NCBI GenBank assembly: GCA_965242795.1
Contig: OZ251505.1
Coordinates: 3,265,587 to 3,329,586, forward strand
Length of the DNA stretch: 64,000 bases
Reading direction: 5' to 3'
DNA from: an uncultured Candidatus Binatia bacterium
GTDB taxonomy: Bacteria > Desulfobacterota > Binatia > Bin18
A program made the translations under genes and the position numbers. Below are positions 1 to 45,046 of the stretch, one piece after another. Every line of letters begins with the position of its first letter. Position 1 is the first letter of the stretch. Below the pieces are notes generated by a model. It did not search any database, had not been told where the DNA came from, and saw only the letters and a program-made list of their open reading frames with translations.

Positions 1-1073
1 TTGCAGACGACGATCGCGTGGCGGGGACGGTGTTCGTCCACGTAGGCCCGAAGCGCCCTGACGTCTCCCGACCGGACGTTGGCGCCGCCTTTCACCTCGA
101 TCGCCACCGCGCCGTCGCGCCCCAGAACGAAGTCGCATTCCAATCCGGACTTGGTGCGCCAGAACCGCACCGGGACGTCCCGCTCGCGATAGGTTCGCCA
201 CGCCAGCAGTTCCATCAGCACCAGATGTTCCAGCGCACGGCCGAACTCCGGTCCCGCGGCCCGTGCGACCCGCCGTCCGATCACGTGTCCGGCGATGCCC
301 ACGTCGAACAGATAGAACTTCGGCGCGCGGGTGATGACCGCCCGGGAGCGGCGGCGGCTGAACGGTTCCACGAACACGCCGAGCAGGGTATCGACGAGAA
401 TCTGAAAGTACTCGCGGACGGTCTTGGAATCCACGCCGCAGTCCCTGGCGATGTTGCTGTAGTTCACCAACTCCCCGTGGCAGAACGCCAGCGCGTCGAA
501 GAACCGCGCGAACGCGGCCACGTTCCGCGTCAGTCCTTCGTCGAACACCTCCTCCTTCAGATAATCCTGGACGTAGCCCGCCAACGCGCGCCGATGCTGT
601 GCCGCATCGTAATGCGCCGGGATCAGCCCCCGGTTCAGCGCCTTCAGCAAATCGAAGGCCGGGATTTCCGGCCACGTCAGCGGATGCAGGCCGAAACGCC
701 ACGCCCGCCCGCCGAGCAGGTTCGCCTGCCCGCGCTTCAACTTCCGGGCGCTCGACCCGCACAGCACGAAGCGCAGGCCGGCGTTTTCGATCAGCCGATG
801 CACCTCGTCCAGAATCGCCGGCGCTTTCTGCACCTCATCGATGACGACGGGATGGGCGCGCGTGGCGGAATCCAACGCCTGCACCCGTTCCCGGAAGACC
901 CACGGCGCCCGGGTCCATTCCAACAACAACCGGGTGTCGAGCAGATCGAAATGCGCGGAACGCGGAAACAGCCGGCGCAGCAACGTCGATTTGCCGGTTT
1001 TGCGCGGCCCCCACAGAAAGGCCGACTGGCCCGCGGGAAGGTCGAGACGAAGCGTGCGGTCATACTCTTCCAT
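1..1073 (-). CDS. AAA+ ATPase, DUF4143/COG1373 family (partial; C-terminus lies beyond the window start)
   Basis: Reverse-strand translation starts MEEYDRTLRLDLPAGQSAFLWGPRKTGKSTLLRRLFP (Walker A GPRKTGKST) and continues through a DUF4143-like C-terminal region (…FWRTKSGLECDFVLG…IEVKGG…). ATG at 1071-1073. The listed + ORF 18..1283 is its antisense artefact. Confidence 0.75.
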   Translation of the reverse strand, partial: MEEYDRTLRLDLPAGQSAFLWGPRKTGKSTLLRRLFPRSAHFDLLDTRLLLEWTRAPWVFRERVQALDSATRAHPVVIDEVQKAPAILDEVHRLIENAGLRFVLCGSSARKLKRGQANLLGGRAWRFGLHPLTWPEIPAFDLLKALNRGLIPAHYDAAQHRRALAGYVQDYLKEEVFDEGLTRNVAAFARFFDALAFCHGELVNYSNIARDCGVDSKTVREYFQILVDTLLGVFVEPFSRRRSRAVITRAPKFYLFDVGIAGHVIGRRVARAAGPEFGRALEHLVLMELLAWRTYRERDVPVRFWRTKSGLECDFVLGRDGAVAIEVKGGANVRSGDVRALRAYVDEHRPRHAIVVC

Positions 1074-1179
1074 TTCGGAATCCATTCCGAGATAGTCGAA
1101 CCAGTTCGGAATATACTCCGAATTGGTTCAGTCAACAACCGACAGGGAGGATTTCAGATTAGGCGGCCCGGGACCCTGA

Positions 1180-8215: not shown

Positions 8216-8440
8216 TTGCCCAACAGCGGGCGGCTATGGTAGCGGTGAGGCCGCTTTGAGGAGGCGACAGGTATGCGCATTCCAGCGTGCGTTCCATTTA
8301 TGGCGTTCGTGGTGTTGTGGGTCGGCTTGGTGATCCGGCCGGGATCGGCCGGCGCCGAACAACAGGCCGCGACGGCGTCCGATGTCGCGCTTCCGGCGGG
8401 GGAGATTCTGGAGCAGCGCTGTTCGGGCTGCCATGCGTCG
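8216..8440. repeat. Direct repeat copy 2 (functional qhpA upstream region and 5' end)
   Basis: See copy 1 at 5750-5975. Confidence 0.7.
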
Positions 8441-9949
8441 GAACAGGAGGGCGGGCCGCTGGACGCGATTGCGGAACAGCGCAAGACGCCCGAAGGCTGG
8501 AGCATGACGCTCAGCCGTATGGCGCGGACCCACGGCGTGGAGTTGCAGGCAGGCGAGGCGCGCATCCTGGTCAAGTATCTGAGCGACCGCTACGGGCTGG
8601 CGCCCGCGGAGGTCGAGCCCTACCGCTTCATTCTGGAGCAGCGCAACATTCGTACTTCGGAGGAGGTTCCCGCACCGCTGAAAGCCGGCTGCGTACAGTG
8701 CCATACGTACGCGCGAACCGCGTTGCAGTACCGCACCGAAGATGCGTGGCTGCGGCTGGCGGATACCAAAGTCGCCATCATGGCGAATATCGGCAGCGAG
8801 ACGGCTTCGGCCGGGTTGCTGCGCGACTATTGGTACGACGATGCGAAGAACAACGCGTTTCCGTATCTTGCTGAGCATCAACCGTTCGAGACCGAAGCGT
8901 GGACGGCGTGGCAGACCAAGAAGAAGCCGGACTATGCCGGTCGCTGGGTGGTAGTCGGCCACGATCCCGGCCGCGGCGGGGAATACACCGGGACGCTGCG
9001 TCTCGACGCGCTCGGGAACGACCGCTACCGCGGCGAATTTTCGTATGCCTTCGCGGACGGCTCGCAACTGACGGGCACGACGACCGGCACGGTGTACACC
9101 GGCTTTCAGTGGCGTGGGGTGGCGCGGACGGACTCCGATGACGGAGACGACGCCCCACAGCGCGAGATCATGTTCGCGTCGGAAGACGGCGGCACGCTGG
9201 TCGGGCGGCGCTTGCTGACCAATTTCGGCGACCTCGGCATGGACGAGACGTGGTACCGCCGTACAGACCGTGCGCGGCTGCTCGCGGTGAATCCCCGGAG
9301 CGTTCGGACGGGAAGCACCCAGACCGTCAGGCTTTTCGGGACGGGTTTTTCCGAGACGTTGCTGTCGGACGGAGGGCTGACGTTCGGCGATGGGGTCACG
9401 GTGTCGTCCGCGCGGATCGAGGGCGACACCGCGGTCGTCGCCGAGGTGTCGGTCGAGGCCGGCGCGACGGAGGGGCTACGCAAGGTCGGGATCGGCGGCG
9501 CGGACGGGCAAGGCCAAGTCGCAGTGTACGACACGGTGGATTACGTCCGGGTTTTCCCGGAGCGCGGGTTCGCGCGCCCGGGCGGGATTCGGACCCCGAA
9601 GATTTTTCAGCAGTACGAGGCCGTCGGCTACGCCAACGGGCCGGACGATAAGAAAGGAACGGACGACGACGTGCGGCTGGGCCGGATCTCACCGATCCGC
9701 TGGAATCTCGAAGAGTACGTCAAACGCCCGAACGACGACGACGTCCGCTACGTCGGTTCCATCGATCAGCACGGCCTGTTTCTGCCCAACGTGGACGGGC
9801 CGAACGCGAACCGGCATCTGATGGAGGGCAACGTCGGCGACGTGTGGGTCGAGGCGTGGTACGCGCCCGACGGCGCGAAACGGCCGATGGGCGCGCGGGC
9901 GCATCTGCTTGTCATGCCGGCCAAATTCATCTTTCCCCCGATAGAATAG
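8273..9949 (+). CDS. qhpA: Quinohemoprotein amine dehydrogenase alpha subunit (N-terminal di-haem cytochrome c domain plus beta-rich domains)
   Basis: Signal peptide, then two haem c sites CSGCH and CVQCH within the first 150 aa. 558 aa in total. The next gene starts 2 nt after the stop (TAG…ATG). Followed by rSAM/SPASM (qhpD), a small Cys/Trp-rich gamma subunit (qhpC) and a beta-propeller protein (qhpB). Confidence 0.85.
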   Translation: MRIPACVPFMAFVVLWVGLVIRPGSAGAEQQAATASDVALPAGEILEQRCSGCHASEQEGGPLDAIAEQRKTPEGWSMTLSRMARTHGVELQAGEARILVKYLSDRYGLAPAEVEPYRFILEQRNIRTSEEVPAPLKAGCVQCHTYARTALQYRTEDAWLRLADTKVAIMANIGSETASAGLLRDYWYDDAKNNAFPYLAEHQPFETEAWTAWQTKKKPDYAGRWVVVGHDPGRGGEYTGTLRLDALGNDRYRGEFSYAFADGSQLTGTTTGTVYTGFQWRGVARTDSDDGDDAPQREIMFASEDGGTLVGRRLLTNFGDLGMDETWYRRTDRARLLAVNPRSVRTGSTQTVRLFGTGFSETLLSDGGLTFGDGVTVSSARIEGDTAVVAEVSVEAGATEGLRKVGIGGADGQGQVAVYDTVDYVRVFPERGFARPGGIRTPKIFQQYEAVGYANGPDDKKGTDDDVRLGRISPIRWNLEEYVKRPNDDDVRYVGSIDQHGLFLPNVDGPNANRHLMEGNVGDVWVEAWYAPDGAKRPMGARAHLLVMPAKFIFPPIE

Positions 9950-9950
9950 C

Positions 9951-11465
9951 GTGGTATGCGGTACTCGGGCAGAGACGCCGATGGAACTCCACTTCCGCGC
10001 CGAGAACGCGCATACGGTCCCCCAGACCGGCTTGTCGGGGAACGACGCCGCGCCCGACATTCTGGTCGCCGCGAAAAGCATGTCCATGTTCGTCATGGAT
10101 TCCGTCTCGGAAGCCGTTCTCGGCTACATGCGGTCGCATCCGCATTCCAGCGAAGCGGCACTGAGCGAAGCGCTGTCGCCCCGATTCTCGACGGACTCGG
10201 TCAGCGAGACCGTCCGGGAATTGCTCGCCCTGGAAATCCTGCACTCTCACGACCGGCCTGCGTCGCCGGCCCCGCTTCCCACGCTCGACGTCGAGCGCTT
10301 CCCGGTCACGTCACTGGTCGTGAACGTGGCCAATAAATGCAACCTGCACTGCACCTATTGTTACGAGCCGGACGGGGCCAAGTACGGACCGTCGCCGGTG
10401 CAGATGGATTGGACGACGGCGCGCGCCAGCGTCGATTTTCTGTTCGGGAAGTCGGGGCGCAGCAAAGAAGTGAACCTGATCTTCTTCGGCGGGGAGGCGC
10501 TGTTGAATTTTCCGCTCATGCGCCGCGTGGTGGCGTATGCCGAGGACAAGGCGGCGGCCGAAGGCAAGACCGTCGATTTTTCGCTCACCACCAACGGCAC
10601 GCTGTTGACCGACGAGGTGATCGATTTCTTCCAGACCCACCGCTTCGGCGTGACGGTCAGCATCGACGGGCCTAAGGACCTGCACGACAAGCGGCGCGTC
10701 TTCCTGAACGCGCGCGGTGGGCAGGTCGGGTCGTACGAGATGCTGCGGCCGCGGCTGGAACGATTGTTCGAACGCTACACCGCCCGACCGGTGGTGGCGC
10801 GCATCACGGTCGCCAGGGACGCCGTCGACGTGGTCCGCACGTACGAGCATCTGACCGAACTCGGCTTTTTCGAGGTCGGCTTTTCACCGGTCACCGCGCA
10901 GCCCGGAGCCGAGTACGGCTTGGAACCCGCGGATTTGCGCGACCTGTTGGATCAGTTCCGCGCATTGGGCGACGTCTACGTCGAACGCGCGCTCGACGGC
11001 CGCTATACCGGCTTCTCCAACCTGAGCACGCTGCTGACGGACATCCACGTGGGAACGAACAAGCTGTTCCCGTGCGGCGCCGGTCTGGGCCTGCTGGACG
11101 TGGACGGCAACGGCGACGTGTATCTATGCCACCGCTTCCCGGGCACAGACGAGCAGAAATACGGCAGCGTGCAGGACGGTCTGGACTACGACCGCCTCAA
11201 CACGTTCATCAACGGCGCCCATGTCGGGAACAAGCCCGTGTGTCAGACGTGCTGGATTCGCGGACTGTGCGGCGGCGGCTGTTACCACGAAGCCCAGACC
11301 GAGTTCGGCGACGCTACCCTGCCGAACCTGCACTACTGCGACTTCCTGCGCGCCTGGACCGAGTACGGTATCGGCGTGTACATGCAGCTTCAGGCGCGTG
11401 TGCCCGGCTTCATCGAGCGATACGTGGTACGCGGGCGGGGCGACGCGCCGAAGGAACTCACGTAG
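9951..11465 (+). CDS. qhpD: Radical SAM/SPASM-domain peptide maturase, QhpD (thioether Cys-to-Asp/Glu crosslinking enzyme for QhpC)
   Basis: CxxxCxxC radical-SAM motif VANKCNLHCTYCYE. C-terminal SPASM Cys cluster (CQTCWIRGLCGGGCYHE; CDFLRAW). Sits between qhpA and qhpC as in Paracoccus/Pseudomonas qhp operons. Confidence 0.85.
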   Translation: MVCGTRAETPMELHFRAENAHTVPQTGLSGNDAAPDILVAAKSMSMFVMDSVSEAVLGYMRSHPHSSEAALSEALSPRFSTDSVSETVRELLALEILHSHDRPASPAPLPTLDVERFPVTSLVVNVANKCNLHCTYCYEPDGAKYGPSPVQMDWTTARASVDFLFGKSGRSKEVNLIFFGGEALLNFPLMRRVVAYAEDKAAAEGKTVDFSLTTNGTLLTDEVIDFFQTHRFGVTVSIDGPKDLHDKRRVFLNARGGQVGSYEMLRPRLERLFERYTARPVVARITVARDAVDVVRTYEHLTELGFFEVGFSPVTAQPGAEYGLEPADLRDLLDQFRALGDVYVERALDGRYTGFSNLSTLLTDIHVGTNKLFPCGAGLGLLDVDGNGDVYLCHRFPGTDEQKYGSVQDGLDYDRLNTFINGAHVGNKPVCQTCWIRGLCGGGCYHEAQTEFGDATLPNLHYCDFLRAWTEYGIGVYMQLQARVPGFIERYVVRGRGDAPKELT

Positions 11466-11504
11466 ACGAGCGCGGTAAAGGCGCACGGAATCGAGGAGAA
11501 GGCC

Positions 11505-11864
11505 ATGAAACACCTCACAGCAGCCAATCGGAAGGCGCGGGCCGTGAGCGCCGCGGTCGACGCCCAGGAGGAGGGGCGCCCCGCGGCCACGCCGAAGGTG
11601 GTCGAAGACGTCATCGGCATGGCACAGCCCATCGGCTGTACGACCATCTTCAACCCCGGCTGGGAAGCGAACCCGTGGGGCGGCGCGAGCAGCATGTGCG
11701 CACCCATGGAAGCCGACCTGCTGAGTTGCGCCAACCTGTGCTGGTGGCCGGCGCAGGTGCCGGACAGCCTGCAGAACGCCCCGGAGTGGGCCAAGGCGTG
11801 CTCCGGTATGAATCAGGAAGACTGGCGCAACCTGGACGTGGTCTTTCCCAAGCTCGACGATTGA
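11505..11864 (+). CDS. qhpC: QHNDH gamma subunit precursor QhpC (leader peptide plus Cys/Trp-rich core bearing the CTQ cofactor and thioether crosslinks)
   Basis: 119 aa. Basic/Ala-rich leader, then a core with five Cys, Trp and multiple Asp/Glu (…GCTTIFNPGWEANPWGG…MCAPMEADLLSCANLCWWPAQ…). RBS gaggagaaggccATG. Its position between the rSAM gene and the beta-propeller gene is diagnostic. Confidence 0.8.
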   Translation: MKHLTAANRKARAVSAAVDAQEEGRPAATPKVVEDVIGMAQPIGCTTIFNPGWEANPWGGASSMCAPMEADLLSCANLCWWPAQVPDSLQNAPEWAKACSGMNQEDWRNLDVVFPKLDD

Positions 11865-11900
11865 TCCGGGCGCCGCTCGGAATCTCCGCTGGATCCGGCA

Positions 11901-13010
11901 ATGCTGCAATTCGGACACGCCCGGCGCCGTTCGACGCCATGGGCCGGCGGTTTGCTGCTGGCCTGCGCCCTGTTCGCCGTGCCGCGGACGGCCTGGGCGA
12001 AGTGGTATCTGCTCGCCAGCACCCACCCCAACAATCTGGTCGTCGTGGACACCGAGACGGATGCGGTCGTCCAGGACATCGCGTTGGAGGGCCGCGGCCC
12101 GGCGTTGTACATCGCGCCCAATCCCGCGCAGCCGCAGTTCGCGTACGTCGTCAACAACCTGGCCCGAAGCGTGGCGATGGTCGATCTCGACGAGGGCAAG
12201 CAGGTCAGGAGTTTCGACCTGTCGAGCGACGGCCAACTCGTGCGGACGATGGCCATTGACGTGAACACGCAGGGGACGCGGCTGTTCGTCCATGAAATGC
12301 CGATCGCCCAGGACCTCGGTCGTTACGCCGCACAGGAAAACCGCATCCGGGTCATCGACCTGAAGACCAACGAAACGGTCACCACGTTTCCCGCGCCGCG
12401 GCAAGTCATGTCGTTGGCTTCATCTCAGGACGGGGAACGCCTGTACGCGTTCAGCGTCGGCCAGGACATCTTCGTGTACGACGCCGAGACCGGCGCCCCG
12501 CTCGACACCATCCCGCTCGCCAACCGCAACATCAGCGGCATCGCCCGGACCGACGGCCTGCCGCTCGGCGGCACCTACCAGGAGAGCGGCCATCTGGTCT
12601 CGTTCGGCACTTTCACCACGGATTCGATCACCAAACAGATCACGCTGGGAATCGGGTCGCTCGACCTCACGCAGAAAGAGCCGGAGTTGAAGATCGTGGA
12701 ATTGCAACCCTTCGTCGAAGGCGATTATCTGCTCACCGGCACGCTGTCGCCCCACACGGGCAAGGCGTATTTCGGGTACAACAGTTTGTGGCGGGTGGAC
12801 CCCGAAACCCGCCACATCGAAAAGAAGGTGCCCCTGTCGAACACGTACTTCGCGCCGCTGGTGCACCCCGAGGGCAAGAAAATCTACTGCGGCAGCAATT
12901 GGCACGACGTGGCGGTGTTCGACGCCGAGTCGCTCGAACTGCTCACCAAGGTCGAACTCGGCCATTCGCAGACCGGCGGGGTGAGCGTGTTGCGATTCGT
13001 CGACCGCTGA
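11901..13010 (+). CDS. qhpB: QHNDH beta subunit QhpB (seven-bladed beta-propeller), signal peptide present
   Basis: N-terminal signal peptide (…LLLACALFAVPRTAWA), repetitive beta-strand-rich sequence typical of a propeller, ~369 aa. Directly follows qhpC. Confidence 0.75.
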   Translation: MLQFGHARRRSTPWAGGLLLACALFAVPRTAWAKWYLLASTHPNNLVVVDTETDAVVQDIALEGRGPALYIAPNPAQPQFAYVVNNLARSVAMVDLDEGKQVRSFDLSSDGQLVRTMAIDVNTQGTRLFVHEMPIAQDLGRYAAQENRIRVIDLKTNETVTTFPAPRQVMSLASSQDGERLYAFSVGQDIFVYDAETGAPLDTIPLANRNISGIARTDGLPLGGTYQESGHLVSFGTFTTDSITKQITLGIGSLDLTQKEPELKIVELQPFVEGDYLLTGTLSPHTGKAYFGYNSLWRVDPETRHIEKKVPLSNTYFAPLVHPEGKKIYCGSNWHDVAVFDAESLELLTKVELGHSQTGGVSVLRFVDR

Positions 13011-18533: not shown

Positions 18534-19205
18534 CTACACCATACGATATTCTTCGGTGAGCAGCGTTACGATGCTGTCGGGATCGACGAAGTGCGCCGCG
18601 TCGGGTTGGACGGCGTCGCGGTATGCGGGCGACGCCAGAGCATAGTGCAAATCGGCGAGGCTGTCGAACCAGAGTGCGGCTGCGCCATCCCAGGTCGGTG
18701 CGCTCCCATCCGCCGCGGGCACGGCATGGCATTGCACGTAGCGGCGCAACCCCGGCAGTTTGACCGCCAGCGGGCCGTGCACGTCTTTCCAGTAGCGGGA
18801 GAAGGCTTCGCGGCTCATGCCCGGTTTGCGTTTGAGGAACGAGATGCGCTTGAGGAGCGGAGGGGAACTGTCGGGCAGGTCGCCGTCGAGCAGGACTTCG
18901 TCGCGGGCAGTCAGCCGCAACACGTGCATTATGTCCACGAAAGTGAATTCGTCCACGTACGCGCCGTTGCGGTAGGCATGGCTGGCGAAAGCGACTTTGA
19001 GGGCGTTTCGGTCGTCCATCCAGACTTCGACGACCCCGTCGTAGGCTTGGCTGCGGCTCAACACGCTCGGGCTGTGGTTCTGCACGTAGCCGCGCAGGCC
19101 GGGGATGCGCCGCGCCAGCGGAGCGTGCACCTCGCGCCAGTGGCGGGAGAACTCCTCGCGGGACAGGCCGTCCTTGCGTTTGATGGCCATCAACAGGTGG
19201 ATCAT
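18534..19205 (-). CDS. Tandem EthD-domain protein
   Basis: MIHLLMAIKRKDGLSREEFSRHWREVHAPLA… and a second repeat …SFLKRKPGMSREAFSRYWKDVHGPLAV… (two EthD-like halves, 223 aa). The start overlaps the stop of the upstream gene (ATGA). Track ORF 18534..19976 is an over-extended artefact. Confidence 0.7.
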   Translation of the reverse strand: MIHLLMAIKRKDGLSREEFSRHWREVHAPLARRIPGLRGYVQNHSPSVLSRSQAYDGVVEVWMDDRNALKVAFASHAYRNGAYVDEFTFVDIMHVLRLTARDEVLLDGDLPDSSPPLLKRISFLKRKPGMSREAFSRYWKDVHGPLAVKLPGLRRYVQCHAVPAADGSAPTWDGAAALWFDSLADLHYALASPAYRDAVQPDAAHFVDPDSIVTLLTEEYRMV

Positions 19206-20116
19206 GACGAAGTTCCTTCGAAGGCGCCGGACTCCACGTCCCGGATGAAGCGCACGAGGTCGCCGAAGTAGGCGTCCTGGTCGTCGTACATGGCGCAGTG
19301 GCTGCCGTTTTCGCACATGGACAGCCGCGCGTTCGGGATGTCCGCGGCCATGCGTTCCATTTCCGCGGGCCGCATGGTGTCGTGGCGCGCCCCCGCAACC
19401 AGGGTCGGACAGCGGATGCGGCCGAGGTCGGCCCAGCGGTCCCAGTCCTTGAAGGTCCCCGTGATGACGAATTCGTTGGGGCCTTGCATGGTGTGATAGA
19501 CCGGCTTGGCCAAGTGCTTGAACATGCGCACCAGCGGTTCGGGCCACGGATCGACCCGGCAGATGTGTCGGCTGTAGATGTTCGCCAGCAACGTCCGTTC
19601 GTACTCCGGCGCGTCGTAGTCGCCGGCGGCTTCGTATCGTTCGAGAATTCGCAGCACCTCGGCCGGCTGCTTCGCACGCAACTCGTTGACGTGCGCCACG
19701 TAGGCCGGAATGCTGGCCGTCATGTTGGAGATGACGAGCCCCTTGATGTGCGCCTGGTATTTCAGCGCGTATTCGATCCCCAGCAACCCGCCCCAGGAAT
19801 GGCCCAGCAGATAGAAGGCGTCGAGCCCCAAGGCCAAGCGGACCTGTTCGACTTCTTCCCGAAACCGCTCGACCGTCCACAGGCTGGTGTCGTCCGGCTG
19901 GTCGGAATACGCGGATCCGAGCTGATCGTAGTAGATGATCTGGATGTCGTGCTGGGGCAGGAAGTCCTCGAAACACTCGAAATACTCATGCGTGCAGCCG
20001 GGGCCGCCGTGCAGGGTCAGCAGCGGAATCGAGCCCGTGCCGACCCGCTTGGTCCAGACGGTGTAGCCGCCGTCGATCTGTACGAGTTGCACCCCGCCGG
20101 TTTTGACGCTTGGCAT
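19202..20116 (-). CDS. Proline iminopeptidase-family alpha/beta hydrolase
   Basis: Start at MPSVKTGGVQLVQIDGGYTVW…; nucleophile elbow LLGHSWGG; ~304 aa; typical prolyl aminopeptidase architecture. Confidence 0.75.
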   Translation of the reverse strand: MPSVKTGGVQLVQIDGGYTVWTKRVGTGSIPLLTLHGGPGCTHEYFECFEDFLPQHDIQIIYYDQLGSAYSDQPDDTSLWTVERFREEVEQVRLALGLDAFYLLGHSWGGLLGIEYALKYQAHIKGLVISNMTASIPAYVAHVNELRAKQPAEVLRILERYEAAGDYDAPEYERTLLANIYSRHICRVDPWPEPLVRMFKHLAKPVYHTMQGPNEFVITGTFKDWDRWADLGRIRCPTLVAGARHDTMRPAEMERMAADIPNARLSMCENGSHCAMYDDQDAYFGDLVRFIRDVESGAFEGTSS

Positions 20117-20280
20117 GGCTCCACTCCTTACGGTCGTCGGCACGCGGCAAGCAGGGTTCCGTAGAATGCCTGACACACGCGCGCACTTTGCGTGAAGTCG
20201 ATCAAAAACCCCTCTTCGTTCGGGCGTGTCGCCTTCCAGTCACGAAAGTGTTCTTCGGTACAGAAGAACTGTACGCGCGG

Positions 20281-20895
20281 TCAAAACCCGTCGAGCACGT
20301 GGGGGGCGGCGCGGTCCGCTTCGGTGAATACCGGGTCCCATTCGCGCAGCGTGCGGGCGATCGGCGTCGGGCTGACTGCGCCGTCGTCGGTGATCGTCAA
20401 GTCGAACTCGATGTCGGCCTTGCACTGCCCGCATTCGGAAAACACCCTGGCTCGCGTTCCCGGCCCATGCACGATGGGGATGGCAATCGCCCCGCCCGCT
20501 CACATGGCGTATAGCCGCGGCTGTCCGTCAAGCTGGACTCGATGGGGGCAGCGGACGTCCGAGAACGGATAGAACGCGATGACCGTGCCGCTCTCGTATT
20601 TGACGATGTCGCGCGCGTTGAGCCGTTCGAGCGTTCCTTGCGCTTCGGTCAGGGGCAGGCCGGCTCGTTCGGCGACTTCGGTCGCGGTGGGGCCGCGGCC
20701 AAGTATAGAAAAGGAGTCGATGATTGCCAGGCAGACGCGCCGGACCTCCGGCGGCATCGTGTCCTCAAAACGCAGCCGGGCGTCGAGCAGAGGTTGCAGA
20801 TAGGCGGCGAACCCGGGCGGGTAGGCGTGCGGGGACAAACGCATGACGGCCTCCTTATCGCCGGTAGTGTTGCCACACGCCGGAGCGGGCGACAA
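20281..20895 (-). CDS. MerB-like (organomercurial lyase family) protein interrupted by an in-frame TGA at the catalytic-Cys position; selenocysteine candidate or pseudogene
   Basis: Track ORFs 20500..20895 and 20281..20472 are in the same frame, separated by one TGA. N-terminal HTH-like region then …DGQPRLYAM-[TGA]-AGGAIAIPIVHGPGTRARVFSECGQC…, which aligns with MerB …DDRRLYAW-C96[21 protein letters not shown]…. The MerB alignment is from memory. Confidence 0.45.
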
Positions 20896-20947: not shown

Positions 20948-21748
20948 ATGTCTCAACCTCCCGCCACGGCGTCGGGCCAATCGTGGGACCCGGAACGCTA
21001 CGCCCGCAGCGCGCGGTTCGTAGCCGACTTGGGGGCTCCGCTGATCGAGATGCTCGACCCGCGGCCGGGCGACCGCATTCTCGACCTCGGCTGTGGCGAC
21101 GGCGTGCTGACCGAGAAACTGGCCGCGGCTTGTCGAGGAACGGGACCCGCCGCTGTGGGCGGCGTCATCGGAATCGACAGCAGCCCGGCCCAAGTCGAGG
21201 CGGCGCGGAAACGCGGGCTGGACGTGCACGTCGGCGACGGCCAACGCTTGGCCTACACCGATGCATTCGACGCCGTGTTCAGCAACGCCGCGCTGCATTG
21301 GATGCCGGACGGCGACGCGGTCCTGGCCGGGGTCTGGCGGGCGCTCAAGCCGGGCGGTCGTTTCGTGGCCGAGTGTGGTGGCGCCGGCAACGTCACGATC
21401 ATCGTGTCCGCGGTGTCCCGCGTCCTGCGCGATCTCGGGAGAGACCCGGAACCGCTCAACCCGTGGGTGTTTCCGGCGCCCGACGAGTACGCTCGACAAC
21501 TTGCTGCGCACGGCTTCGCGGTTGATTCCATCAAACTGATCCCGCGGCCGACCCGCCTGCCGGGCGACATCGGCGAGTGGCTGGAAATGTTCGCCGCCAG
21601 CTTTCTGGACACCGTCCCTCCCGCAGAGCGGGGCACGTGCATCGCCCGCATCCGAGACCTCCTGCGCCCCGAATTGTGCGACGCGGACGGCGTGTGGACC
21701 GCCGATTACGTGCGCCTGCGCTTTGCTGCCCATAAGCCGCGGCCATGA
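20948..21748 (+). CDS. Class I SAM-dependent methyltransferase (trans-aconitate/Tam-like)
   Basis: Motif I ILDLGCGDGVLT; post-I acidic residue; 266 aa. Confidence 0.8.
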   Translation: MSQPPATASGQSWDPERYARSARFVADLGAPLIEMLDPRPGDRILDLGCGDGVLTEKLAAACRGTGPAAVGGVIGIDSSPAQVEAARKRGLDVHVGDGQRLAYTDAFDAVFSNAALHWMPDGDAVLAGVWRALKPGGRFVAECGGAGNVTIIVSAVSRVLRDLGRDPEPLNPWVFPAPDEYARQLAAHGFAVDSIKLIPRPTRLPGDIGEWLEMFAASFLDTVPPAERGTCIARIRDLLRPELCDADGVWTADYVRLRFAAHKPRP

Positions 21749-30289: not shown

Positions 30290-33200
30290 TCAAGACACCG
30301 CCGGCTCGGGGACTCGGGAGGCGACGGCCCAGCCCGCGGACAGGACTTCGGCCTGCTCCAGGACGGTGCGCGTGGCCTGCTCCCGCTTGTCGGGCGGATA
30401 ACCGTGTTTGCGCAGAATGCGCTTGACCAGGACGCGCAACTGCGCGCGCACGTTCTCGCGCAGCGTCCAGTCGATGGTGACGTTGCGGCGCACCGTCTCG
30501 ACCAGTTCGCGCGCAATGGCGCGTAGGGGTTCGTCGCCGAGCACGCGGACCGCGCTGTCGTTGGTCTCCAGCGCGTCGTAGAAGGCGATCTCGTCCTCCG
30601 ACAACCCGAGCGCGGCGCCGCGGGCGTTCGCCGTGCGCAGGTCGCGGGCGAGGTGGATCAACTCTTCGATCACCTGCGCGGCTTCGACGGCGCGGTTCCG
30701 ATAGCGGCGCAAGGTCTGCTCCAACATGGCGCTGAAGGTGCGCGCCTGGACCACGTTCCGGCGCCCGCGGGCGGTGATCTCGCCCTTCAGGAGTTTCTGC
30801 AGCAGATCGACGGCCAGGTTGCGCTGCGGCATGCCCCGAACCTCGGCCAGAAAGTCGTCGGAGAGGACCGATACGTCGGGCTTGTCCAGCCCGGCCGCGG
30901 CGAAGACGTCGGTCACGCCCGCGGACGCGACCGCGCGCGAGATGATCTGCCGGACGGCGCGGTCCATCTCGTCCGCGGGCCGTGCCGCGCCCGGCGCGCG
31001 TTTCGCCAGTACCGCCCGCACCGCCTGGAGGAAGCCCACGTCGTCGCGGATGCGCAGCGCGTCCGCGTGGGGTACCGCCAGCGCGAACGCGTGCGACAAG
31101 GCGTGCACCGCCTGCAGGCAGCGCTCCTTGCCGTCGGGCTGCGCCAGCACGTGTTCCTGCGCCGCGGGCAACAGGCCCAGCCGCTGCGCCGGCGTGCCGG
31201 CCGCCCACGCCGCCCGGTCGAAGCCGTGGAACAGGCCGCAGCAGACCTCGTATTTTTCCAACAGCACCGCGACCGCGTCGGCCTGGTCCAGCGCGGCGCG
31301 CCCGGCGCCACCGCCCTCCGTATAGGTCGCCAGCGCGCGGCGGAGTTCGTGGGCCACGCCCAGATAATCGACCACCAGCCCGCCCGGCTTGTCCCGGAAC
31401 ACGCGGTTGACCCGGGCGATGGCCTGCATCAGCGCGTGGCCGCGCAGCGGTTTGTCCAGATACAGGGTGTGCAGGCTGGGCGCGTCGAAGCCGGTCAGCC
31501 ACATGTCGCGCACCAGCACCATGCGCAGCGGGTCCGCGGGGTCGCGGAAGCGGGCGGCCAGCGCCTCGCGCCGGGGTTTGGTGCGGATGTGCGGCTGCCA
31601 GTCGGGCGGGTCGGCCGCGGCGCCGGTCATGACGATCTTGAGTGCCCCCTGTGCGTCGTCCGGGGCATGCCAGTCCGGGCGCAGGCGCACCAGTTCCCGG
31701 TACAGGGCGATGCAGATGCGCCGGCTCATGCACACGACCATCGCCTTGCCGTCGAGCGCTGTGAGTCGCTGCTCGAAGTGCGTGACCAGGTCGCGGGCCA
31801 CGAGCGCCAGCCGCTGTTCGGCGCCGACCACCGCTTCGAGCTGCGCCCAGCGCGACTTGAGCTTTTCCTTGCGCGCCGTCTCCTCGCCCTCGGTCGCTTC
31901 CTCGAAGTCGGAGTCGATGCTCGGGCGTTCGCGTTCGTCCAGGGCGAGCGCGGCCAGCCGGCTTTCGTAGTAGATCGGGACCGTGGCCCGGTCTTCGACC
32001 GCGCGCTGGACGTCGTAGATGCTGATGTAGTCGCCGAACACGGCGCGCGTGTTGGCGTCGCGCAATTCGACCGGCGTGCCGGTGAAGCCCACGAAGGCGG
32101 CGTGCGGCAGGGCGTCGCGGATGTGGCGTGCGTAGCCGTCGATGAAGTCGTACTGGCTGCGGTGCGCTTCGTCGGCGATCACCACGATGTTGCGGCGCTC
32201 GGACAACGCCGGGGTCGGTGCGGGGTGCGACTCCCGTTCCTCGGACGTATCGGACCGGAGGCGGGCGAGACCCCCGCGTGCCCGGGAGGGAGGCGCGGCC
32301 GGCGCTTCCGGAAAGAATTTCTGGATGGTGGTGAAGATGACGCCGCCGGACGCCACGGCGAGTTTGGCGTGCAGGTCGGCGCGGCTGTCCGCCTGGACCG
32401 GCGGCTGGCGCAACAGGTCCCGGCAGCGCGCGAAGGTGGCGAACAACTGGTCGTCCAGGTCGTTGCGGTCGGTCAGCACCACCACGGTCGGGTTCCGCAG
32501 GGCCGGCTCGCGGACGATGCGCCCGGCGTAGAACGCCATCGTCAGGCTCTTGCCCGACCCCTGCGTGTGCCAGACCACGCCGATGCGGCGGTCGCCGGGT
32601 TCGCCGCCCGGCTTGCGTCCCGCCTCGTAGCGGCCGCCGGCCCCTTCGCCGACGGTGTCGGCCTCCTGTTGCAATTCGGTCGCGCGCAGGGTTTCGGCGA
32701 CCGCGATCTCGACCGCGTGGAACTGGTGGTAGCCCGCCATTTTCTTGACGGGCGCGCCGTCGTCCTCGAAGACGATGAAATCGCGCACCAGCGCCAGAAA
32801 GCGGGCCGGCGCGCACACGCCCTTCAGCAGCACTTCGAGTTCGGGCCGTGCCGGATCGGCCAGCGCGGCGCCGGCAATCGTGCGCCACGGCTTGAACCAC
32901 TCGCGCCCCGCGGTCAGCGTGCCGATGCGCGCCTCCACTCCGTCGGACACGATCAGCGCGGCGTTCAGGGCGAACAGGGCGGGCAACTCGGCCTTGTAGG
33001 TCTGCAACTGGTGCCACGCGGTCCAGACGGTCGCGTCCTCGTCCGCGGGGTTCTTCAACTCGACGATGCCGAGCGGCAGGCCGTTCACGAACAACATCAC
33101 GTCGGGCCGCCGCTCGCGTTGCTGCTCCACCACGGTGAACTGATTGACCGCCAGCCAGTCGTTCTCGTCCGGCTCATCGAAGTCGAGCACGCGCGCCTGC

Positions 33201-33532
33201 GCCCCGCGGACCGCGCCGCCGTCGGGGCGATATTCCACGGTCACACCGTCCACGACCATGCGGTGAAAGGCGCGGTTGCGGGTTTCCAGCGTGACGCCGT
33301 CCGGCCGGGTCAGCCGGCGGACCGCGGCGTCAAGCGCGTCTGCCGGCAGGGCGGGGTTGAGGCGGGCCAGCGCGTCGCGCAGCCGCGGCTCCAGCACGAC
33401 CGCGGCGTAATCGGCGCGCTCCGCCCCGGGCGTTCCCGGTGCGATGTCCGGCCCGGAGGCGACCGACCAGCCCAGGCCGCGCAGCCAGTCGAGCGCCGCG
33501 TCCTCGACGGTGGATTCGGTGAAGTCGGTCAC
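30290..33532 (-). CDS. hsdR: Type I restriction enzyme R subunit (HsdR), ~1080 aa
   Basis: Probable GTG start at [22 protein letters not shown] (classic HsdR N-terminus). Helicase motif I …[11 protein letters not shown]…, DEAH box [10 protein letters not shown], motif VI …QAIARVNR…; C-terminal helical domain. Track ORF 30290..34330 over-extends at the 5' end. Confidence 0.9.
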
Positions 33533-34293
33533 GCGGCCAGATCCTCGCGCGCGGTCTCCCGCCTCGACCACGGCACCGGCCGCACGTCGTAGCGCCGTAT
33601 CGCGTCCGACACGTTCTCCGGGATGGCTCGGTCCGTATCGTTCAGAATGGCGTAGGCGCGGGACTCCGGGGCACGGGTCTCTCTGGTGTCGATCCAGGAG
33701 AAGGCGACCGCCTGTGCGGTGTCGCGGTTCGGTCGGTTGATCGTCCGCAGGACCCGCTCCGGCTGCGCCCGCGACTTCGGAATCACGAAATCGAACCGGT
33801 GATCGTATCCGCTCTTCCCGGTGAACTTCACGTTCGGCGTATAGCGAACCTCGGAAAGGTCGAGCCACGCCACGACGTCCTCGTAGAACAGGCTCTGGAC
33901 CGTGGGCGACGCCAAGGAGAAGAGATCGCCTACGGCGAGCATCGCCTGCACGAGGTTGTGCTTCCGCAGGGGAAAGTTGTCCGACGTCGCTCGAACTTCG
34001 AGTGCCTCCCGGCTGATCTGCACGCCGAACCCGTTGACCGTCGTTTTGAGGAGCGCCTGCCGTTTGGGGCTCCCGAGGGGGCAGCCGGACTGCTCCAGGT
34101 CGCCCAGCACGTACCCGTCGTCCGTCAATACGAATCCGCCATTGGCCCGTTTGACGTAGATTTGGAGGCAGTCGTTGTGCCGGTCCAGGTACGGCGTGGT
34201 GATTTCGATCCAGTCCTCGGTCCGGCGCAGACTCGTCCTGTCCCGTACCCAGGTCGCGTAGCGGTCCACGAGCGCCTGCACGTCTTCGATCAT
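33529..34293 (-). CDS. DUF1828/DUF1829-family protein (commonly associated with type I R-M loci)
   Basis: 254 aa from [16 protein letters not shown]…; ATGA overlap with the hsdR start region. Family assignment is from memory of sequence character, not a computed search. Confidence 0.5.
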
Positions 34294-34739
34294 GTGAACA
34301 ACCCTCGCCGGATGATGGGCGGGTCCACAACGTGACAGAACCGCAGGAAATCTTCGAGAGTTCGCCACGGATCGTTCACGTTCACGAAACGGTCGCCCGG
34401 AACCGGAGCCGCCCACTTGTCGCCGTATCCCTCGCGGTAGAGATGGATGTGCGGCGATCCGATCTCCTCTCCATCCGGGTTGCGGTGCGGTGCCCCGCCG
34501 AAATCGAGCCGGACGAGGACCACGACCTGTCGTCCGCGCTGTTGATAGGTGCCTTTCGCAAGATCGATTCGCGCCCGGGGGATGTCGAGCAGAAACGCCT
34601 CGCGCCGGTCGGTCGAAGCCAACGGAACCGTCACTCGTCCTCCGAAGTCCGGGTAGTCGTACTCGGTCTCGTCGACTCGGCGCTTCTCCATTCTCAGGAG
34701 GGCGTCGGCCTCAGCCTGCGTAAGGTCATGATTCGCCAT
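34290..34739 (-). CDS. Hypothetical protein (149 aa) in the hsd-embedded cargo
   Basis: …[45 protein letters not shown]…; possible His-containing active-site-like motif (PHIHLY). ATGA overlap with the DUF1829 gene. Confidence 0.4.
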
Positions 34740-34754
34740 CGAAGTTGCTCTTTA

Positions 34755-35894
34755 TTACGTGTGCAGGTCCGGGGGGTCCTCACTCGGAATGACGTCGGCA
34801 ATGCGGGCATGCAGCAAGTGCCAGCGCTGGCCGGTGCGCTCCAGGTCGCCTTTTATGACGACCGGCGCCTTGGCGGCGTGGGCGTGAATCGCGCGGTCGT
34901 AGTCGGATTGCGGCAGAACGGCGCTGACGGACTGGATTCGTCCGTCGATGTACGTGCGCAGCGTGATGGCCCCGCCGGTCTCCCGTCCGTCGCGTTGCAG
35001 GCGTTGCACGAGGCCGACCAGTTGCGCGTCCGGTTGCGGTTCGCGCTCGCGGAACGACCGGGCCGCCTCGCGCAGGATCGGCGCGTCGGCCTCGGCGAAA
35101 CGGACGACCGTGCGCACCGTGTCCAGCGGACGGGTGCGCGCCCAGGTCAGGCTGACGTCCAAGGTCGGGAACGGTCCGATCAGGTCGGCGAGCGATTCGC
35201 ACAAGTTGGCGCTCGTCCCGTGGACGACCGCGTTGGAGAAGGCCGCGGCGTCGCCGCCCACCGTTCTTTCCGTTGCCTCGCGGGTAGCGCTCAACGCTTC
35301 GGTCAGACGCCGCGTCATGCGCCGTTCGATCGGGTCGTCGTCGGGGGCCACGTCCAGGGCGAGCAGGGGTTGCGTGGGGGGCGGCACGACCGGAGGCAAC
35401 AAGGTCACGACGTAACTCCCCTGTTCGCTTTGCCCCAAGCGCACGCAGCCGACATAGGCGCTGGCCTCTCGGTTCGCGCCGGCGCGATAGAGCGGTCGCG
35501 GCTCGCGCAACGAGCAGGCCGCGGCCAGCAGCATGTCGTAGGCGCCGCGGAGGAGGCTGACCCCGTCGTTGACGGCTACGGAACCGGTGTCGTCGGGGGC
35601 CACCCGCACCCGGATGACGTCGCGGTCGGCGGTCACCAAGTCGCGGTAGAGCGCGAGTTCGTCCATGTCGGCAACCCGCGCGAAAATGTCGATGAGTTGC
35701 GCAACGACGGCGGCGTAGTCGCCGAGGCGCTGGGTGCGCGGCACGACGATCTCCGGCAGCCCGTCCGCGGCATACACGTCGGAATGATCGCCGTAGGGTT
35801 CGCGCCTGACCCATCCCGCAGCGCGGGCATAGGCCGAGAGGGCCGCAGGGGAAACCGCGGTCAAGGCTTCCGTGTCCCGGATGCTGGCTTTCAT
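34755..35894 (-). CDS. Hypothetical protein (379 aa), translationally coupled to the upstream DUF4365-like gene
   Basis: Start MKASIRDTEALTAVSPAAL… overlaps the stop of the preceding gene (ATGA at 35891-35894). Ordinary globular composition; no known motif recognised. Confidence 0.5.
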   Translation of the reverse strand: MKASIRDTEALTAVSPAALSAYARAAGWVRREPYGDHSDVYAADGLPEIVVPRTQRLGDYAAVVAQLIDIFARVADMDELALYRDLVTADRDVIRVRVAPDDTGSVAVNDGVSLLRGAYDMLLAAACSLREPRPLYRAGANREASAYVGCVRLGQSEQGSYVVTLLPPVVPPPTQPLLALDVAPDDDPIERRMTRRLTEALSATREATERTVGGDAAAFSNAVVHGTSANLCESLADLIGPFPTLDVSLTWARTRPLDTVRTVVRFAEADAPILREAARSFREREPQPDAQLVGLVQRLQRDGRETGGAITLRTYIDGRIQSVSAVLPQSDYDRAIHAHAAKAPVVIKGDLERTGQRWHLLHARIADVIPSEDPPDLHT

Positions 35895-36391
35895 CGGACG
35901 GTCCCTCCTCTCGATTGGTCCATCAATGCGCGCAGACCTTCGACAGTGAACAGATTCCCCGTCGGGATTCGGACGGTGACGGACGATCGATTGTCCGATT
36001 CCTCGGCCCCTTGCAAGTTCAGCCAATAGGCGCTCCGCCGCAGTATGAGCTCGTCCGCGGTGATCGTCATCCAGCGGTGCTCGTCCCTCGGCAGGTCGAG
36101 TACGACGAGCAGGCGCGGCGTCTGGGTCGGCTGACGTAACAGATCGTAGTTTCGACGTTTGAGGGGGAAGTGAAAACGTCCTTCATGCGGTTCGCTCAGA
36201 TTGATCGTTGCCTTCAATTGCAAATCGAGCGCCGGGCGCATCGCCCCGCCGGCTTGAATTCGCAGGTCCACGCCGTCCCGGTCCGGGTCGGGGATGGACG
36301 TGACGTAGCCGGTCCGTGCCGCTACGGCGTACGCATAGGCGCGGGAGAGGGCTTCTTGCCGGTCGGGGGCGGTCAGGAGGGTGTCGGTCAT
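35891..36391 (-). CDS. DUF4365-like PD-(D/E)xK-fold protein
   Basis: 166 aa. …IPDPDRDGVDLRIQAGG…LDLQLKAT… fits a D…(D/E)xK restriction-endonuclease-like core. The family call is tentative. Confidence 0.5.
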   Translation of the reverse strand: MTDTLLTAPDRQEALSRAYAYAVAARTGYVTSIPDPDRDGVDLRIQAGGAMRPALDLQLKATINLSEPHEGRFHFPLKRRNYDLLRQPTQTPRLLVVLDLPRDEHRWMTITADELILRRSAYWLNLQGAEESDNRSSVTVRIPTGNLFTVEGLRALMDQSRGGTVR

Positions 36392-36689
36392 AGGATGCTT
36401 TCACCTGTTTTTCAGGATTGCGGCTCTTGAGAGATTCGATCCGCGGGACGGCGGGTGAGGCAGCCGATTGGGACATTGGGGAGAGTCTCGGGGGCTTGTC
36501 GGCCCGCAGTTGACCGGAAAAGGGGGGCCAGGGCAAGAAGACAGGCTGGCGGTCGTGCATCCGTTTCGGTGGCGCTGCCCGGGAACGTGGGCGTTCCGCC
36601 CGCCTGTGGTGCGGACTGGAAGCCCGCGTTCCCAGGAAGAATAAGGCCAATCGATGCACGCCCGAAGGCTCAAGGCAGCCGGGTTCTTT

Positions 36690-36750
36690 CCTCCGATCAC
36701 CTCCCCCTAGTCCCTGAGATGGTCGAAGGATGAGGGGGAGTGATAGGAAG
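36690..36750. repeat. Near-perfect 12-bp inverted repeat (atcacctccccct…agggggagtgat) in a 410-bp intergenic gap; shares the 'gggggagtgat' motif with 40885 and 40968
   Basis: gatcacctccccctagtccctgagatggtcgaaggatgagggggagtgatagg. Confidence 0.4.
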
Positions 36751-36802
36751 GGCGCCCTACGGGCACGCTAAAGAATGGATATAACGTAGCCGGTCCACGC
36801 AG

Positions 36803-37474
36803 CTACGATGCTGGAACTGTCACATGGACCACAGCCCGTTCGGCAGGAAGTATCGACTCAGCAAAGGAGCCATCCTGCACGGGGAGCCTGTCAGCATATC
36901 GAGCCGACGCGGTGTGGTAGAAATTCCTGAGAATGAAGTCGATAAACCAGAAAGGCGTCATTGGGGCCGTTACCGGGATCCGGCAGTTTTGGTATTGGCC
37001 GAGCGTCAAATGAGACTTAGGATGTGTTAGCTCTCGGTGACGGCCGTCCCGAGCGTCATAGTCAAAACGCACCGGAAACGGAACGATGTTCCTGGAGAGC
37101 ACATCAGCGTAGATTTCGTCGTCTTGGTAGATATCCGGATTGTTCTGGAATTCTTCAAGGTGGGGTGCAGAGAAAAACGCAAGTCGGTGACGTTGCAGCG
37201 TTCCATTGACGAAGGCGTATGTCATCTGAATCAATGCGCCGTCAAGCATCTTTGCGTTGTAGGCACGCTCTTGGACAAGACTTTGGTAAATTTCCTCGTA
37301 TGGACGATCCTTTAACGCTTCTGACACATGTTCAGCTTTGTCAAAAGTGACTTGCACAAGATTATTAGCACCAGACTTTTGGAACGCAAAGCGTTGATCG
37401 TCGACGAGACTCCTCTCAACTAAATACTTGATGATTTCGTTGACTTGCTTTTCAACCTGATTGGAAGTTGGCAC
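36803..37474 (-). CDS. Hypothetical protein (223 aa; possibly DUF2290-like), upstream partner of the NERD-helicase
   Basis: Low-GC codon usage matching the helicase gene. Lies 5 nt upstream of the helicase stop and is presumably co-transcribed. No catalytic motif recognised. Confidence 0.5.
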   Translation of the reverse strand: MPTSNQVEKQVNEIIKYLVERSLVDDQRFAFQKSGANNLVQVTFDKAEHVSEALKDRPYEEIYQSLVQERAYNAKMLDGALIQMTYAFVNGTLQRHRLAFFSAPHLEEFQNNPDIYQDDEIYADVLSRNIVPFPVRFDYDARDGRHRELTHPKSHLTLGQYQNCRIPVTAPMTPFWFIDFILRNFYHTASARYADRLPVQDGSFAESILPAERAVVHVTVPAS

Positions 37475-37479
37475 GATCC

Positions 37480-39642: not shown

Positions 39643-39662
39643 AGGCGGCTCCTTTTATTGTC

Positions 39663-41627: not shown

Positions 41628-41969
41628 GTTGCGAACAATATCAGGGTCGCGGAGCTTTTCCTGGTATCCTTGCTAATGAGAATTACGGAGGGGCGCCAAG
41701 GCGTCCACGCTCTCCCTTTCTTTTCCCTTGGTCCCGAAATGCTCCAGGTGTCGGCCTTGCTAAGCGCGGATTCCTCCACGATTCAGACGCATTTTCACGA
41801 CGCGGAGGCTGGCGACCGTCACGTCGTCGGAGTCCTCTTCGTAGCCAGTGACGACGACGCGCCGGGCGTCCGGATGAGTCTCCAAAGCCCGGAGCAATTC
41901 CCTGACGGTCGTGGCGTTCTCTCCAACGTCCCTAACGCGGCTCCGTTCCGCGAAATCATCGGAAGCCCG

Positions 41970-42275
41970 CGTATCGGTCATCTGTGGCCGGCAAAAGAAT
42001 TTGTCGGCCATTTTTGGCGAAAAGTGGCCGGCAACGCGCGTTGTCGGTCATGGGTGGCCGATAGCGCCGTTCGTCTCGAAAGGGCGCCATCAATCCAGAC
42101 CGCCGGCGGCCGTGGCGTCGCAATCATACCCGTCTTCGCCATCCACGGCTCCGGCTCGATAGAGTTCCTTCCGTATCGGTCATCCATGACCATCAAAGGA
42201 ATTTGCCGGCCATTTTTTGCGGAAAGTGGCCGGCAACGCGCGTTGTCGGTCATGGGTGGCCGATAGCGCCGTTCC
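41970..42275. repeat. Two ~105-bp direct repeats (41970-42072 and 42171-42275), each containing reiterated tcggtcatNNgtggccggcaa sub-motifs; in the fic-hsdS intergenic region
   Basis: cgtatcggtcatctgtggccggcaaaagaatttgtcggccatttttggcgaaaagtggccggcaacgcgcgttgtcggtcatgggtggccgatagcgccgttc repeated with ~90% identity. Confidence 0.7.
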
Positions 42276-44963: not shown

Positions 44964-45046
44964 GCCGTGCTGCTTCCGTGCCGGTTACGCTGCTGCAGGT
45001 CCGCGGCCGTCCGCACACGACGGGAGCGCGGAGGCGGGATGGGCGG

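Follow-up and report, generated by a model that had tools for sequence, protein, structure and literature searches.

A MerB-like gene of a Candidatus Binatia bacterium with conserved in-frame UGA codons, probably decoded as selenocysteine, at both metal-ligand cysteine positions

In the structures of MerB, the organomercurial lyase, Cys96 and Cys159 bind mercury together. A MerB-like selenoprotein, SaoL, has been described that carries selenocysteine (Sec) at the Cys159 position and occurs in the Sec form in 98% of cases (Haft & Gwadz, bioRxiv 10.1101/2022.07.06.499078). A 2026 review that covers 119 families and subfamilies of prokaryotic selenoproteins has SaoL, with one Sec, as its sole MerB-like entry, and aerobes are thought rarely to keep selenoproteins. 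Here we describe a MerB-like gene on the minus strand of a 64,000-nt stretch, hereafter the window, of contig OZ251505.1 (assembly GCA_965242795.1) from an uncultured Candidatus Binatia bacterium. The gene contains two in-frame UGA codons, at the positions of both mercury ligands of MerB, and both are probably decoded as Sec. Our searches of the literature on Sec use in Binatota or Binatia and on merB in Binatia returned nothing relevant.

The original prediction had singled out two minus-strand open reading frames (ORFs), 20500..20895 and 20281..20472, as parts of one MerB-like selenoprotein gene interrupted by a TGA at the catalytic Cys position. Both ORFs are present in a common frame, and the TGA at 20502-20500 is their sole separator, the read-through peptide being ...DGQPRLYAM-U-AGGAIAIPIVHGPGTRARVFSECGQC.... 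The second ORF itself ends at another in-frame TGA (20283-20281), beyond which the frame continues for 50 codons to a TAA at 20130-20128. Lacking a start codon, this third segment was never listed as an ORF. The tail downstream of the second TGA (PRVQFFCTEEHFRDW...) aligns with MerB C160-HVHFFASVPTAEDW, which places the second TGA on Cys159. Thus, the 'shorter C-terminus' first ascribed to the protein was an artefact of ending it at the second TGA. The C-terminus is full length, the extent of the gene is corrected from 20281..20895 to 20128..20844, and the number of candidate Sec codons rises from one to two, at the Cys96 and Cys159 positions.

The gene is a single frame with two internal TGAs. 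Its orthologues, found in 14 related loci (one Candidatus Binatia genome, L001, and 13 metagenome contigs with labels in the range L002-L015), are colinear with it and show no frameshifts. TGA is the normal stop in 10 of the 16 confident genes of the window, so the genetic code is standard and TGA is not reassigned. The elements of the gene are the following.

20128..20844, minus strand: complete MerB-like gene, a 717-nt ORF in which 238 sense codons precede the TAA; codons 115 and 188 are TGA
20850..20856, minus strand: Shine-Dalgarno sequence AAGGAGG, read directly from the sequence and also conserved in L001
20844-20842, minus strand: likely start codon ATG, 5 nt downstream of AAGGAGG
20500..20502, minus strand: UGA no. 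1 (putative Sec115), at the MerB Cys96 position by HMMER/PDB alignment; TGA in 14/14 related loci
20464..20478, minus strand: SECIS-like hairpin 1 (SECIS, Sec insertion sequence), core CCCAU-CGUGC-AUGGG; the loop starts 26 nt after the UGA and has G at position 2, followed by U
20281..20283, minus strand: UGA no. 2 (putative Sec188), at the MerB Cys159 position by alignment; TGA in 11/11 related loci that extend that far
20250..20269, minus strand: SECIS-like hairpin 2, GUUCUUC-UGUACC-GAAGAAC, with a 7-bp stem and a 6-nt loop that begins 18 nt after the UGA
20128..20130, minus strand: true stop codon TAA; the equivalent position holds TAA in L001 and TAG in L002
Sec-spanning peptides predicted from the sequence: LYAM-U-AGGAIAIPIVHGPGTR (Sec115) and AAPHVLDGF-U-PR (Sec188)

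The translated protein matches the Pfam MerB family (PF03243, cut-off 27 bits) with 59.9 bits if Cys is placed at both TGAs, and with 41.9 bits if X is used instead. It extends over residues 94-228 of the protein and positions 1-125 of the 126-position profile, and each of the six full-length family members has such a match. As Cys at both sites adds 18 bits, the two sites belong to the most conserved columns of the MerB family. HMMER alignment with the MerB chains of the PDB puts RLYAM-[TGA]-AGGA on RLYAW-C96-ALDT, as anticipated for the first TGA, and DGF-[TGA]-PRVQFF on SF-C159-C160-HVHFF. The register at the second site is fixed by PDB entry 3f2g, whose chain reads SFCSHVHFF and which we take to be the C160S mutant. 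A profile built from the family finds its best solved-structure match in MerB2 (5c17; E = 8.7e-10, residues 28-220), with both sites again on Cys residues. The positions of the MerB catalytic residues Cys96, Asp99 and Cys159 are thus occupied by putative Sec, Gly and putative Sec, invariantly in the family; the lack of an Asp99 equivalent had already been noticed in the original prediction.

The protein does not have the Cys96/Asp99/Cys159 catalytic triad of MerB proper, and it scores far below the MerB equivalog models of NCBIfam (56.5 vs 193 bits for NF009710 and 42.6 vs 200 bits for NF033555). The SaoL model NF040728 yields 34.9 bits against a cut-off of 140, over residues 41-149 only, and neither the single Cys-Sec dipeptide nor the SAO neighbourhood of SaoL is found. 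By these sequence measures, the protein belongs to the MerB superfamily only, outside both MerB proper and SaoL. NCBIfam release 20 contains no model for a double-TGA MerB-like family.

Other features of the family are apparent from the alignments. Five Cys residues are invariant besides the two putative Sec: Cys99 (PFSD..C.H), Cys138-x-x-Cys141, Cys195 (FFC.EEH) and Cys224. Other invariant residues include His182, Asp185, Glu197, Glu198 and His199. The N-terminal motif YPPGFA.YLQPLLDAR is specific to the family, being absent from MerB and from the Cys-form relatives of the family, and residues 39-92 give weak matches to HTH_IclR/TrmB helix-turn-helix (HTH) domains.

The 14 related loci have GC contents between 48 and 70%, and those aligned encode proteins 48-87% identical to that of the window. 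TGA no. 1 is kept in all of them and TGA no. 2 in the 11 that reach it, always in frame, with no other stop and no frameshift. Scanning genomes identified L001, a complete Candidatus Binatia chromosome (OZ241332.1), which harbours an 87% identical copy with both TGAs in an intact frame; the two loci are ~94% identical at the nucleotide level. The metagenome scan returned, in L002, a copy of only 55% identity with both TGAs. Cys is present at both columns in more distant homologues, namely MerB, MerB2 and full-length relatives of 23-28% identity (P0011, P0016, P0017, P0019 and P0034).

Using the N-terminal fragment as a query, a HMMER scan of 1.84 billion representative sequences collected seven clusters, at 37-83% identity. 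All seven end exactly one residue before TGA no. 1, in ...YAM, ...WGM, ...HGM, ...YPM or ...DAM. They hold ~69 sequence variants, unnamed or called 'hypothetical protein', and the products that gene callers assign to these database copies have 113-126 residues. Copies with other N-terminal gene calls share the same end point. No Cys-codon version of the subfamily was found among the ~69 variants. The full read-through protein, with U replaced by C, had no match in a word-indexed protein search, where the family is represented only by N-terminal fragments. Three database entries illustrate how the locus is mishandled in gene calling. P0005 carries a frameshift and enters an alternative frame near the site of TGA no. 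1. P0075 and P0080 have spurious N-terminal extensions, and P0075 is fused to an upstream ORF, yet both end in ...YAM or ...HGM.

Between the window and L002, dN/dS (the ratio of non-synonymous to synonymous substitution rates, Nei-Gojobori method) is 0.35 before, 0.52 between and 0.23 after the TGAs, with dS values of 0.6-1.3. These low ratios in all three segments argue that all three are translated and under selection, and exclude a pseudogene. We also scanned the window for pairs of same-frame ORFs joined by one TGA with a coding signal on both sides. Five such pairs were detected, of which three are adjacent separate genes and one is antisense to annotated genes, leaving the MerB-like locus as the only real candidate. 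One of the TGAs considered as a Sec candidate, at 11862-11864, was rejected as the ordinary stop between the gamma and beta quinohemoprotein amine dehydrogenase genes, which lie in one frame with this single TGA between them.

The original prediction had proposed a hairpin with a GU-containing loop downstream of the first TGA. Folding bore this out, and conserved hairpins that fit the SECIS consensus were found after both TGAs. The stem of hairpin 1 has 5 bp in the window and 7 bp in L002 and L007, with the loop CGUG(C/U), and a longer imperfect stem spans about 20449-20496. This hairpin is predicted in every homologue and in the RNAalifold consensus. In six sequences, the stem of hairpin 2 is invariant save for one U-A to U-G change and its loop varies only at position 5; here too the hairpin is the RNAalifold consensus structure. 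Counting from the U of the UGA, the G and U of its loop are nucleotides 23 and 24, which we take to match the numbering of the Escherichia coli fdhF SECIS. Predicted energies are -12 to -13 kcal/mol for hairpin 2 with its lower stem and -15 to -19 kcal/mol for hairpin 1 in a context of 52-60 nt. The criteria for bacterial SECIS (bSECIS) elements are a loop of 3-9 nt, an upper stem of 4-16 bp, a G at loop position 1 or 2, a spacing of 16-37 nt and a minimum free energy of -7.5 kcal/mol or lower (PMC13188914). Both hairpins agree with them, with spacings of 26 and 18 nt and an NGU loop.

The real evidence for the hairpins is the conservation of synonymous sites. We compared columns with an invariant amino acid and a degenerate codon in six sequences. 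Of these columns, 8 of the 16 in the two hairpin windows also have an invariant codon, in contrast to 0 of the 58 outside them (Fisher p = 8.5e-7). The frozen codons, CCC ATC GTG yAT GGG and TTC TTC TGT .. GAA, are shared by six genomes of 48-70% GC, and they include minor codons of this genome (TGT, 22%; CAT/TAT, 23%; GGG, 20%). Two alternative hairpins were considered and rejected. GUACAG/CUGUAC, after UGA no. 2, is disrupted in L007 and L003, lacks a loop G and is spaced by only 12 nt; GGCGG.../...YGCC, after UGA no. 1, is spaced by only 8 nt and is broken in L003. Searches of Rfam gave nothing at gathering scores in the window, and at the locus the matches did not exceed chance level. To our knowledge, Rfam has no bacterial SECIS family, and this negative result therefore says little.

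We consider it very likely, on these comparative grounds, that positions 20844..20128 form one gene for a 238-residue MerB-fold protein whose two in-frame UGAs are decoded as Sec. The double UGA conserved among orthologues, the SECIS-fitting hairpins, the selection on the segments that follow the UGAs and the presence of Cys in distant homologues support the selenoprotein proposal and, taken together, are hard to explain without Sec decoding. Translation would start at AUG 20844. SelB with Sec-tRNA(Sec) would be recruited at each UGA by the hairpin located just downstream in the coding sequence, with CGUGC as the apical loop 26 nt after the first UGA and UGUACC as that 18 nt after the second, and Sec115 and Sec188 would result. 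By homology with the MerB structures, the two residues would be adjacent in space and form a pair of selenolates at the active site.

As to function, the protein most likely works on its own in the cytosol, as a lyase for an organometal(loid) compound or as a scavenger of it, a proposal that we make with moderate confidence. Two selenolates would chelate a soft metal and promote protonolysis of its bond to carbon. The proton might come from a selenol or from an invariant residue such as His182, Asp185, Glu197, Glu198 or His199, in replacement of Asp99. Selenols are ionised at neutral pH, so the base provided by Asp99 could be dispensable.

Several observations weigh against this interpretation. 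In the window, hairpin 1 is weak, with 5 bp and -4.2 kcal/mol on its own, and its 63-nt region is no more stable than GC-matched shuffled sequences (z = +1.9); for hairpin 2, z ranges from -1.1 to -1.4 relative to shuffles. The stems of both hairpins are invariant, so neither has statistically supported covariation. Inserting Sec twice within a single small bacterial ORF is expected to be inefficient. The 64-kb window and the 14 fetched loci yielded no selA, selB, selD or tRNA-Sec gene in Pfam searches of ~40 ORFs, ARAGORN runs on the window and 13 loci, and the scan for TGA-joined ORFs; the same searches revealed no second selenoprotein gene. Finally, the protein lacks the MerB general acid Asp99 and its gene is not part of a mer operon, so that organomercurial lyase activity is not established.

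The last of these points bears on a different view of the function, which we regard as possible but doubtful. The protein might be a double-Sec protein of MerB fold that is not a lyase, and might serve instead as a high-affinity soft-metal(loid) binder, a chaperone, a sensor or an Se-Se redox protein, the N-terminal winged-helix-like domain giving it a regulatory role. Asp99, which MerB needs for protonolysis of the Hg-C bond, is indeed replaced by Gly in every member, but MerB2 (5c17) also lacks Asp there, its active-site stretch reading C-A-I-S in the alignment. The weak HTH_IclR/TrmB matches would suit a regulator; nevertheless, MerB itself has an N-terminal domain of comparable architecture without being a regulator. 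The further invariant Cys residues, including a CxxC, and a conserved neighbouring gene for a YfcG-like glutathione-dependent disulfide oxidoreductase are consistent with redox or binding roles, and metal-binding proteins with two Sec residues are known from the 2026 catalogue, MbdU and a UxxU protein among them. Against all this stands the retention of the MerB catalytic domain from end to end.

It is much less probable that the UGAs do not specify Sec at all, in which case translation would terminate at the first UGA to yield a 114-residue winged-helix protein, or low-level read-through by near-cognate Trp or Cys tRNAs would occur, stimulated by the hairpins. No Sec machinery was found in the window or the fetched loci, hairpin 1 is thermodynamically unremarkable and gene callers report a product of 113-126 residues throughout. 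However, both UGAs fall exactly on the two metal-ligand Cys columns, unlike random read-through sites, and constraint on the segments that follow them is no weaker than on the first one. The spacings of the two hairpins and their NGU loops are those of SelB-dependent SECIS elements, and the lack of a Cys-codon version among the ~69 variants is reminiscent of SaoL, with its 98% of Sec forms. Lastly, inactivation of a MerB-like gene by nonsense mutations, the recent loss of function that the original prediction had kept as its alternative, would take only single-base changes from TGC or TGT to TGA and would fit an annotation made of truncated fragments, but the comparative data refute it for practical purposes: both TGAs are found again, without a frameshift or another stop, in loci whose proteins have diverged at up to half of their residues and whose GC contents span 22 points; downstream of either TGA, dN/dS is far below 1; and it is precisely in the hairpins that follow the TGAs that synonymous sites are frozen.

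The genes around the MerB-like gene were examined in the window and the related loci. Those closest to it are listed below.

19202..20116, minus strand: alpha/beta hydrolase of the proline iminopeptidase family (TIGR01250, 337 bits vs a cut-off of 168)
18534..19205, minus strand: tandem EthD-domain protein, in conserved synteny; its ATG (19205) overlaps the TGA of the hydrolase gene as ATGA
18538-18519, minus strand: terminator-like hairpin, downstream of the EthD gene
20948..21748, plus strand: divergent class I S-adenosylmethionine (SAM)-dependent methyltransferase, conserved in L006, L009-L011 and L013-L015
21992-22669: YfcG-like glutathione S-transferase (GST), next after the methyltransferase, a conserved neighbour

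The hydrolase gene is in the same position in L006, L009-L013 and L015. Its ATG (20116) is 11 nt after the TAA of the MerB-like gene, whose stop codon is overlapped by an AAGGAG, and the two genes are probably co-transcribed. More generally, there are indications that translation of the genes that follow the MerB-like gene (18534-20130, minus strand) is coupled. The divergent side encodes DegP, the YfcG-like GST and the class I SAM methyltransferase. The neighbourhood, on both sides of the MerB-like gene, is conserved between the window, L006 and L009-L015, and the flanking gene order of the window matches that of L009. The cluster of methyltransferase, hydrolase and EthD genes is common only to the closer members. 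Among the more distant ones (stretches inspected: L002, 1-3546; L007, 1-5595; L003, 1-17294), the neighbours in L002 and L007 are a major facilitator superfamily transporter and a MOSC protein, with a luciferase-like monooxygenase also noted in L007, and those in L003 are an enoyl-CoA hydratase, an intradiol dioxygenase and an amidohydrolase. No mer operon (merR, merT/P, merA) was found near the gene in the window or the loci. Neither a SAO-type ABC transporter nor another Sao gene was present among the Pfam-annotated neighbours in the window and the loci, the Sao-specific NCBIfam models not having been run. Thus, the gene itself is the only constant element across these contexts, which fits a stand-alone function.

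Elsewhere, the window harbours a number of other systems. A complete quinohemoprotein amine dehydrogenase operon occupies 8249-13010 of the plus strand, and a type I restriction-modification system split by inserted genes occupies 30290-44984 of the minus strand. Their parts are as follows.

8273-9949, plus strand: quinohemoprotein amine dehydrogenase, alpha subunit
9945-11465, plus strand: radical-SAM maturase
11466-11864, plus strand: gamma subunit
11865-13010, plus strand: beta-propeller subunit
30290-34375, minus strand: hsdR
34290-34751, minus strand: DUF6978
37480-39642, minus strand: UvrD-like helicase
39663-41627, minus strand: hsdS fused to a DUF559 endonuclease-like domain
43374-44963, minus strand: hsdM

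The 36-43 kb stretch is devoid of the high-GC3 coding signal (GC content at third codon positions) seen elsewhere in the window and may be an acquired defence island. Paralogous AAA_14/DUF4143 ATPase genes are located at the window edge (3-1127, minus strand) and beside hsdM (45047-46273, minus strand). The window is rich in genes for O2-dependent enzymes, including a P450 (53270-54742), TauD (49987-51072) and luciferase-like monooxygenases (51003-51953 and 63458-64000). It also codes for an aldehyde:ferredoxin oxidoreductase (AFOR_N and AFOR_C, E = 1e-143; 59731-61830, minus strand); such proteins are tungsten enzymes typical of anaerobes.

Judging from the sequence comparisons, the proteins described here almost certainly represent an undescribed family of double-Sec MerB-like proteins. 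The family provides a system for asking what Sec does beyond Cys in the cleavage of carbon-metal bonds or the capture of soft metals, as well as a further example of two SECIS elements in one 717-nt bacterial ORF. It also reveals an annotation error, since all ~69 database variants seen end at the first UGA, and counts of merB genes based on predicted proteins would miss it. More speculatively, and with rather long odds, the protein might be an enzyme that obligately uses two selenolates, which would make this the first family of MerB fold with Sec for both catalytic nucleophiles, and it would perform mer-operon-independent carbon-metal(loid) cleavage in aerobic soil and sediment bacteria such as methylotrophic Binatia. 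If so, trace methylmercury or organotin, organolead, organoarsenic or organotellurium compounds would be candidate substrates, and this family could be behind a share of the methylmercury demethylation in the environment that is so far unexplained.

With MerB itself (EC 4.99.1.2; plasmid R831b; PDB 1S6L, 3F0O and 3F0P), the family shares the same domain throughout and the motifs RLYA[WM]-[C/U] and [C/U]-x-x-x-FF...W. It differs by an identity of only ~23%, by putative Sec in place of both mercury-ligand residues, Cys96 and Cys159, by Gly in place of Asp99, by insertions of its own (GPGT and REWDP...DR..PH.LDG) and by the absence of merR, merA, merT and merP nearby. MerB2, a natural variant of MerB, likewise has no Asp at position 99, but it keeps both Cys residues. 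The closest full-length relatives that we found are the Cys-form MerB-like proteins mentioned above, which have the same architecture of ~225-250 residues with an N-terminal HTH-like domain, and the YPFS...H.V, AMC and FFC..EH..W motifs. They nevertheless are only 23-28% identical to the family, and they have Cys at both positions and a C-A-x-D-A-L-G motif that includes Asp99. Other bacterial selenoproteins with two or three Sec residues, such as UxxU (NF041115), MbdU (NF045648) and the ArsM fusions (NF041536 and NF041537), resemble it in having more than one SECIS-directed Sec and a link to metals or metalloids. However, their folds are unrelated, and in none of them does Sec replace both catalytic nucleophiles of a MerB-family enzyme.

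SaoL (NF040728) has the MerB PF03243 fold, a UGA-encoded Sec at the Cys159 position, an almost exclusive Sec form and a record of database truncation at the UGA, all of which are observed or predicted features of the present family as well. Nevertheless, SaoL has one Sec, in a Cys-Sec dipeptide, whereas the double-UGA family would have Sec at both ligand positions and, at the Cys159 site, G-[F/M/T]-U in place of the CU dipeptide. SaoL keeps Cys and Asp at positions 96 and 99 (Cys99 and Asp102 in C. difficile), where the double-UGA family has putative Sec and Gly. Lastly, SaoL belongs to the nine-gene SAO operon of strict anaerobes, in contrast with a gene that is found without that operon in a Binatia-type host rich in O2-dependent enzymes. 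Thus, as far as sequences and gene contexts tell, this family is distinct from SaoL, with both metal ligands always predicted to be Sec, the catalytic Asp gone and Binatia-like hosts of plainly aerobic gene content.

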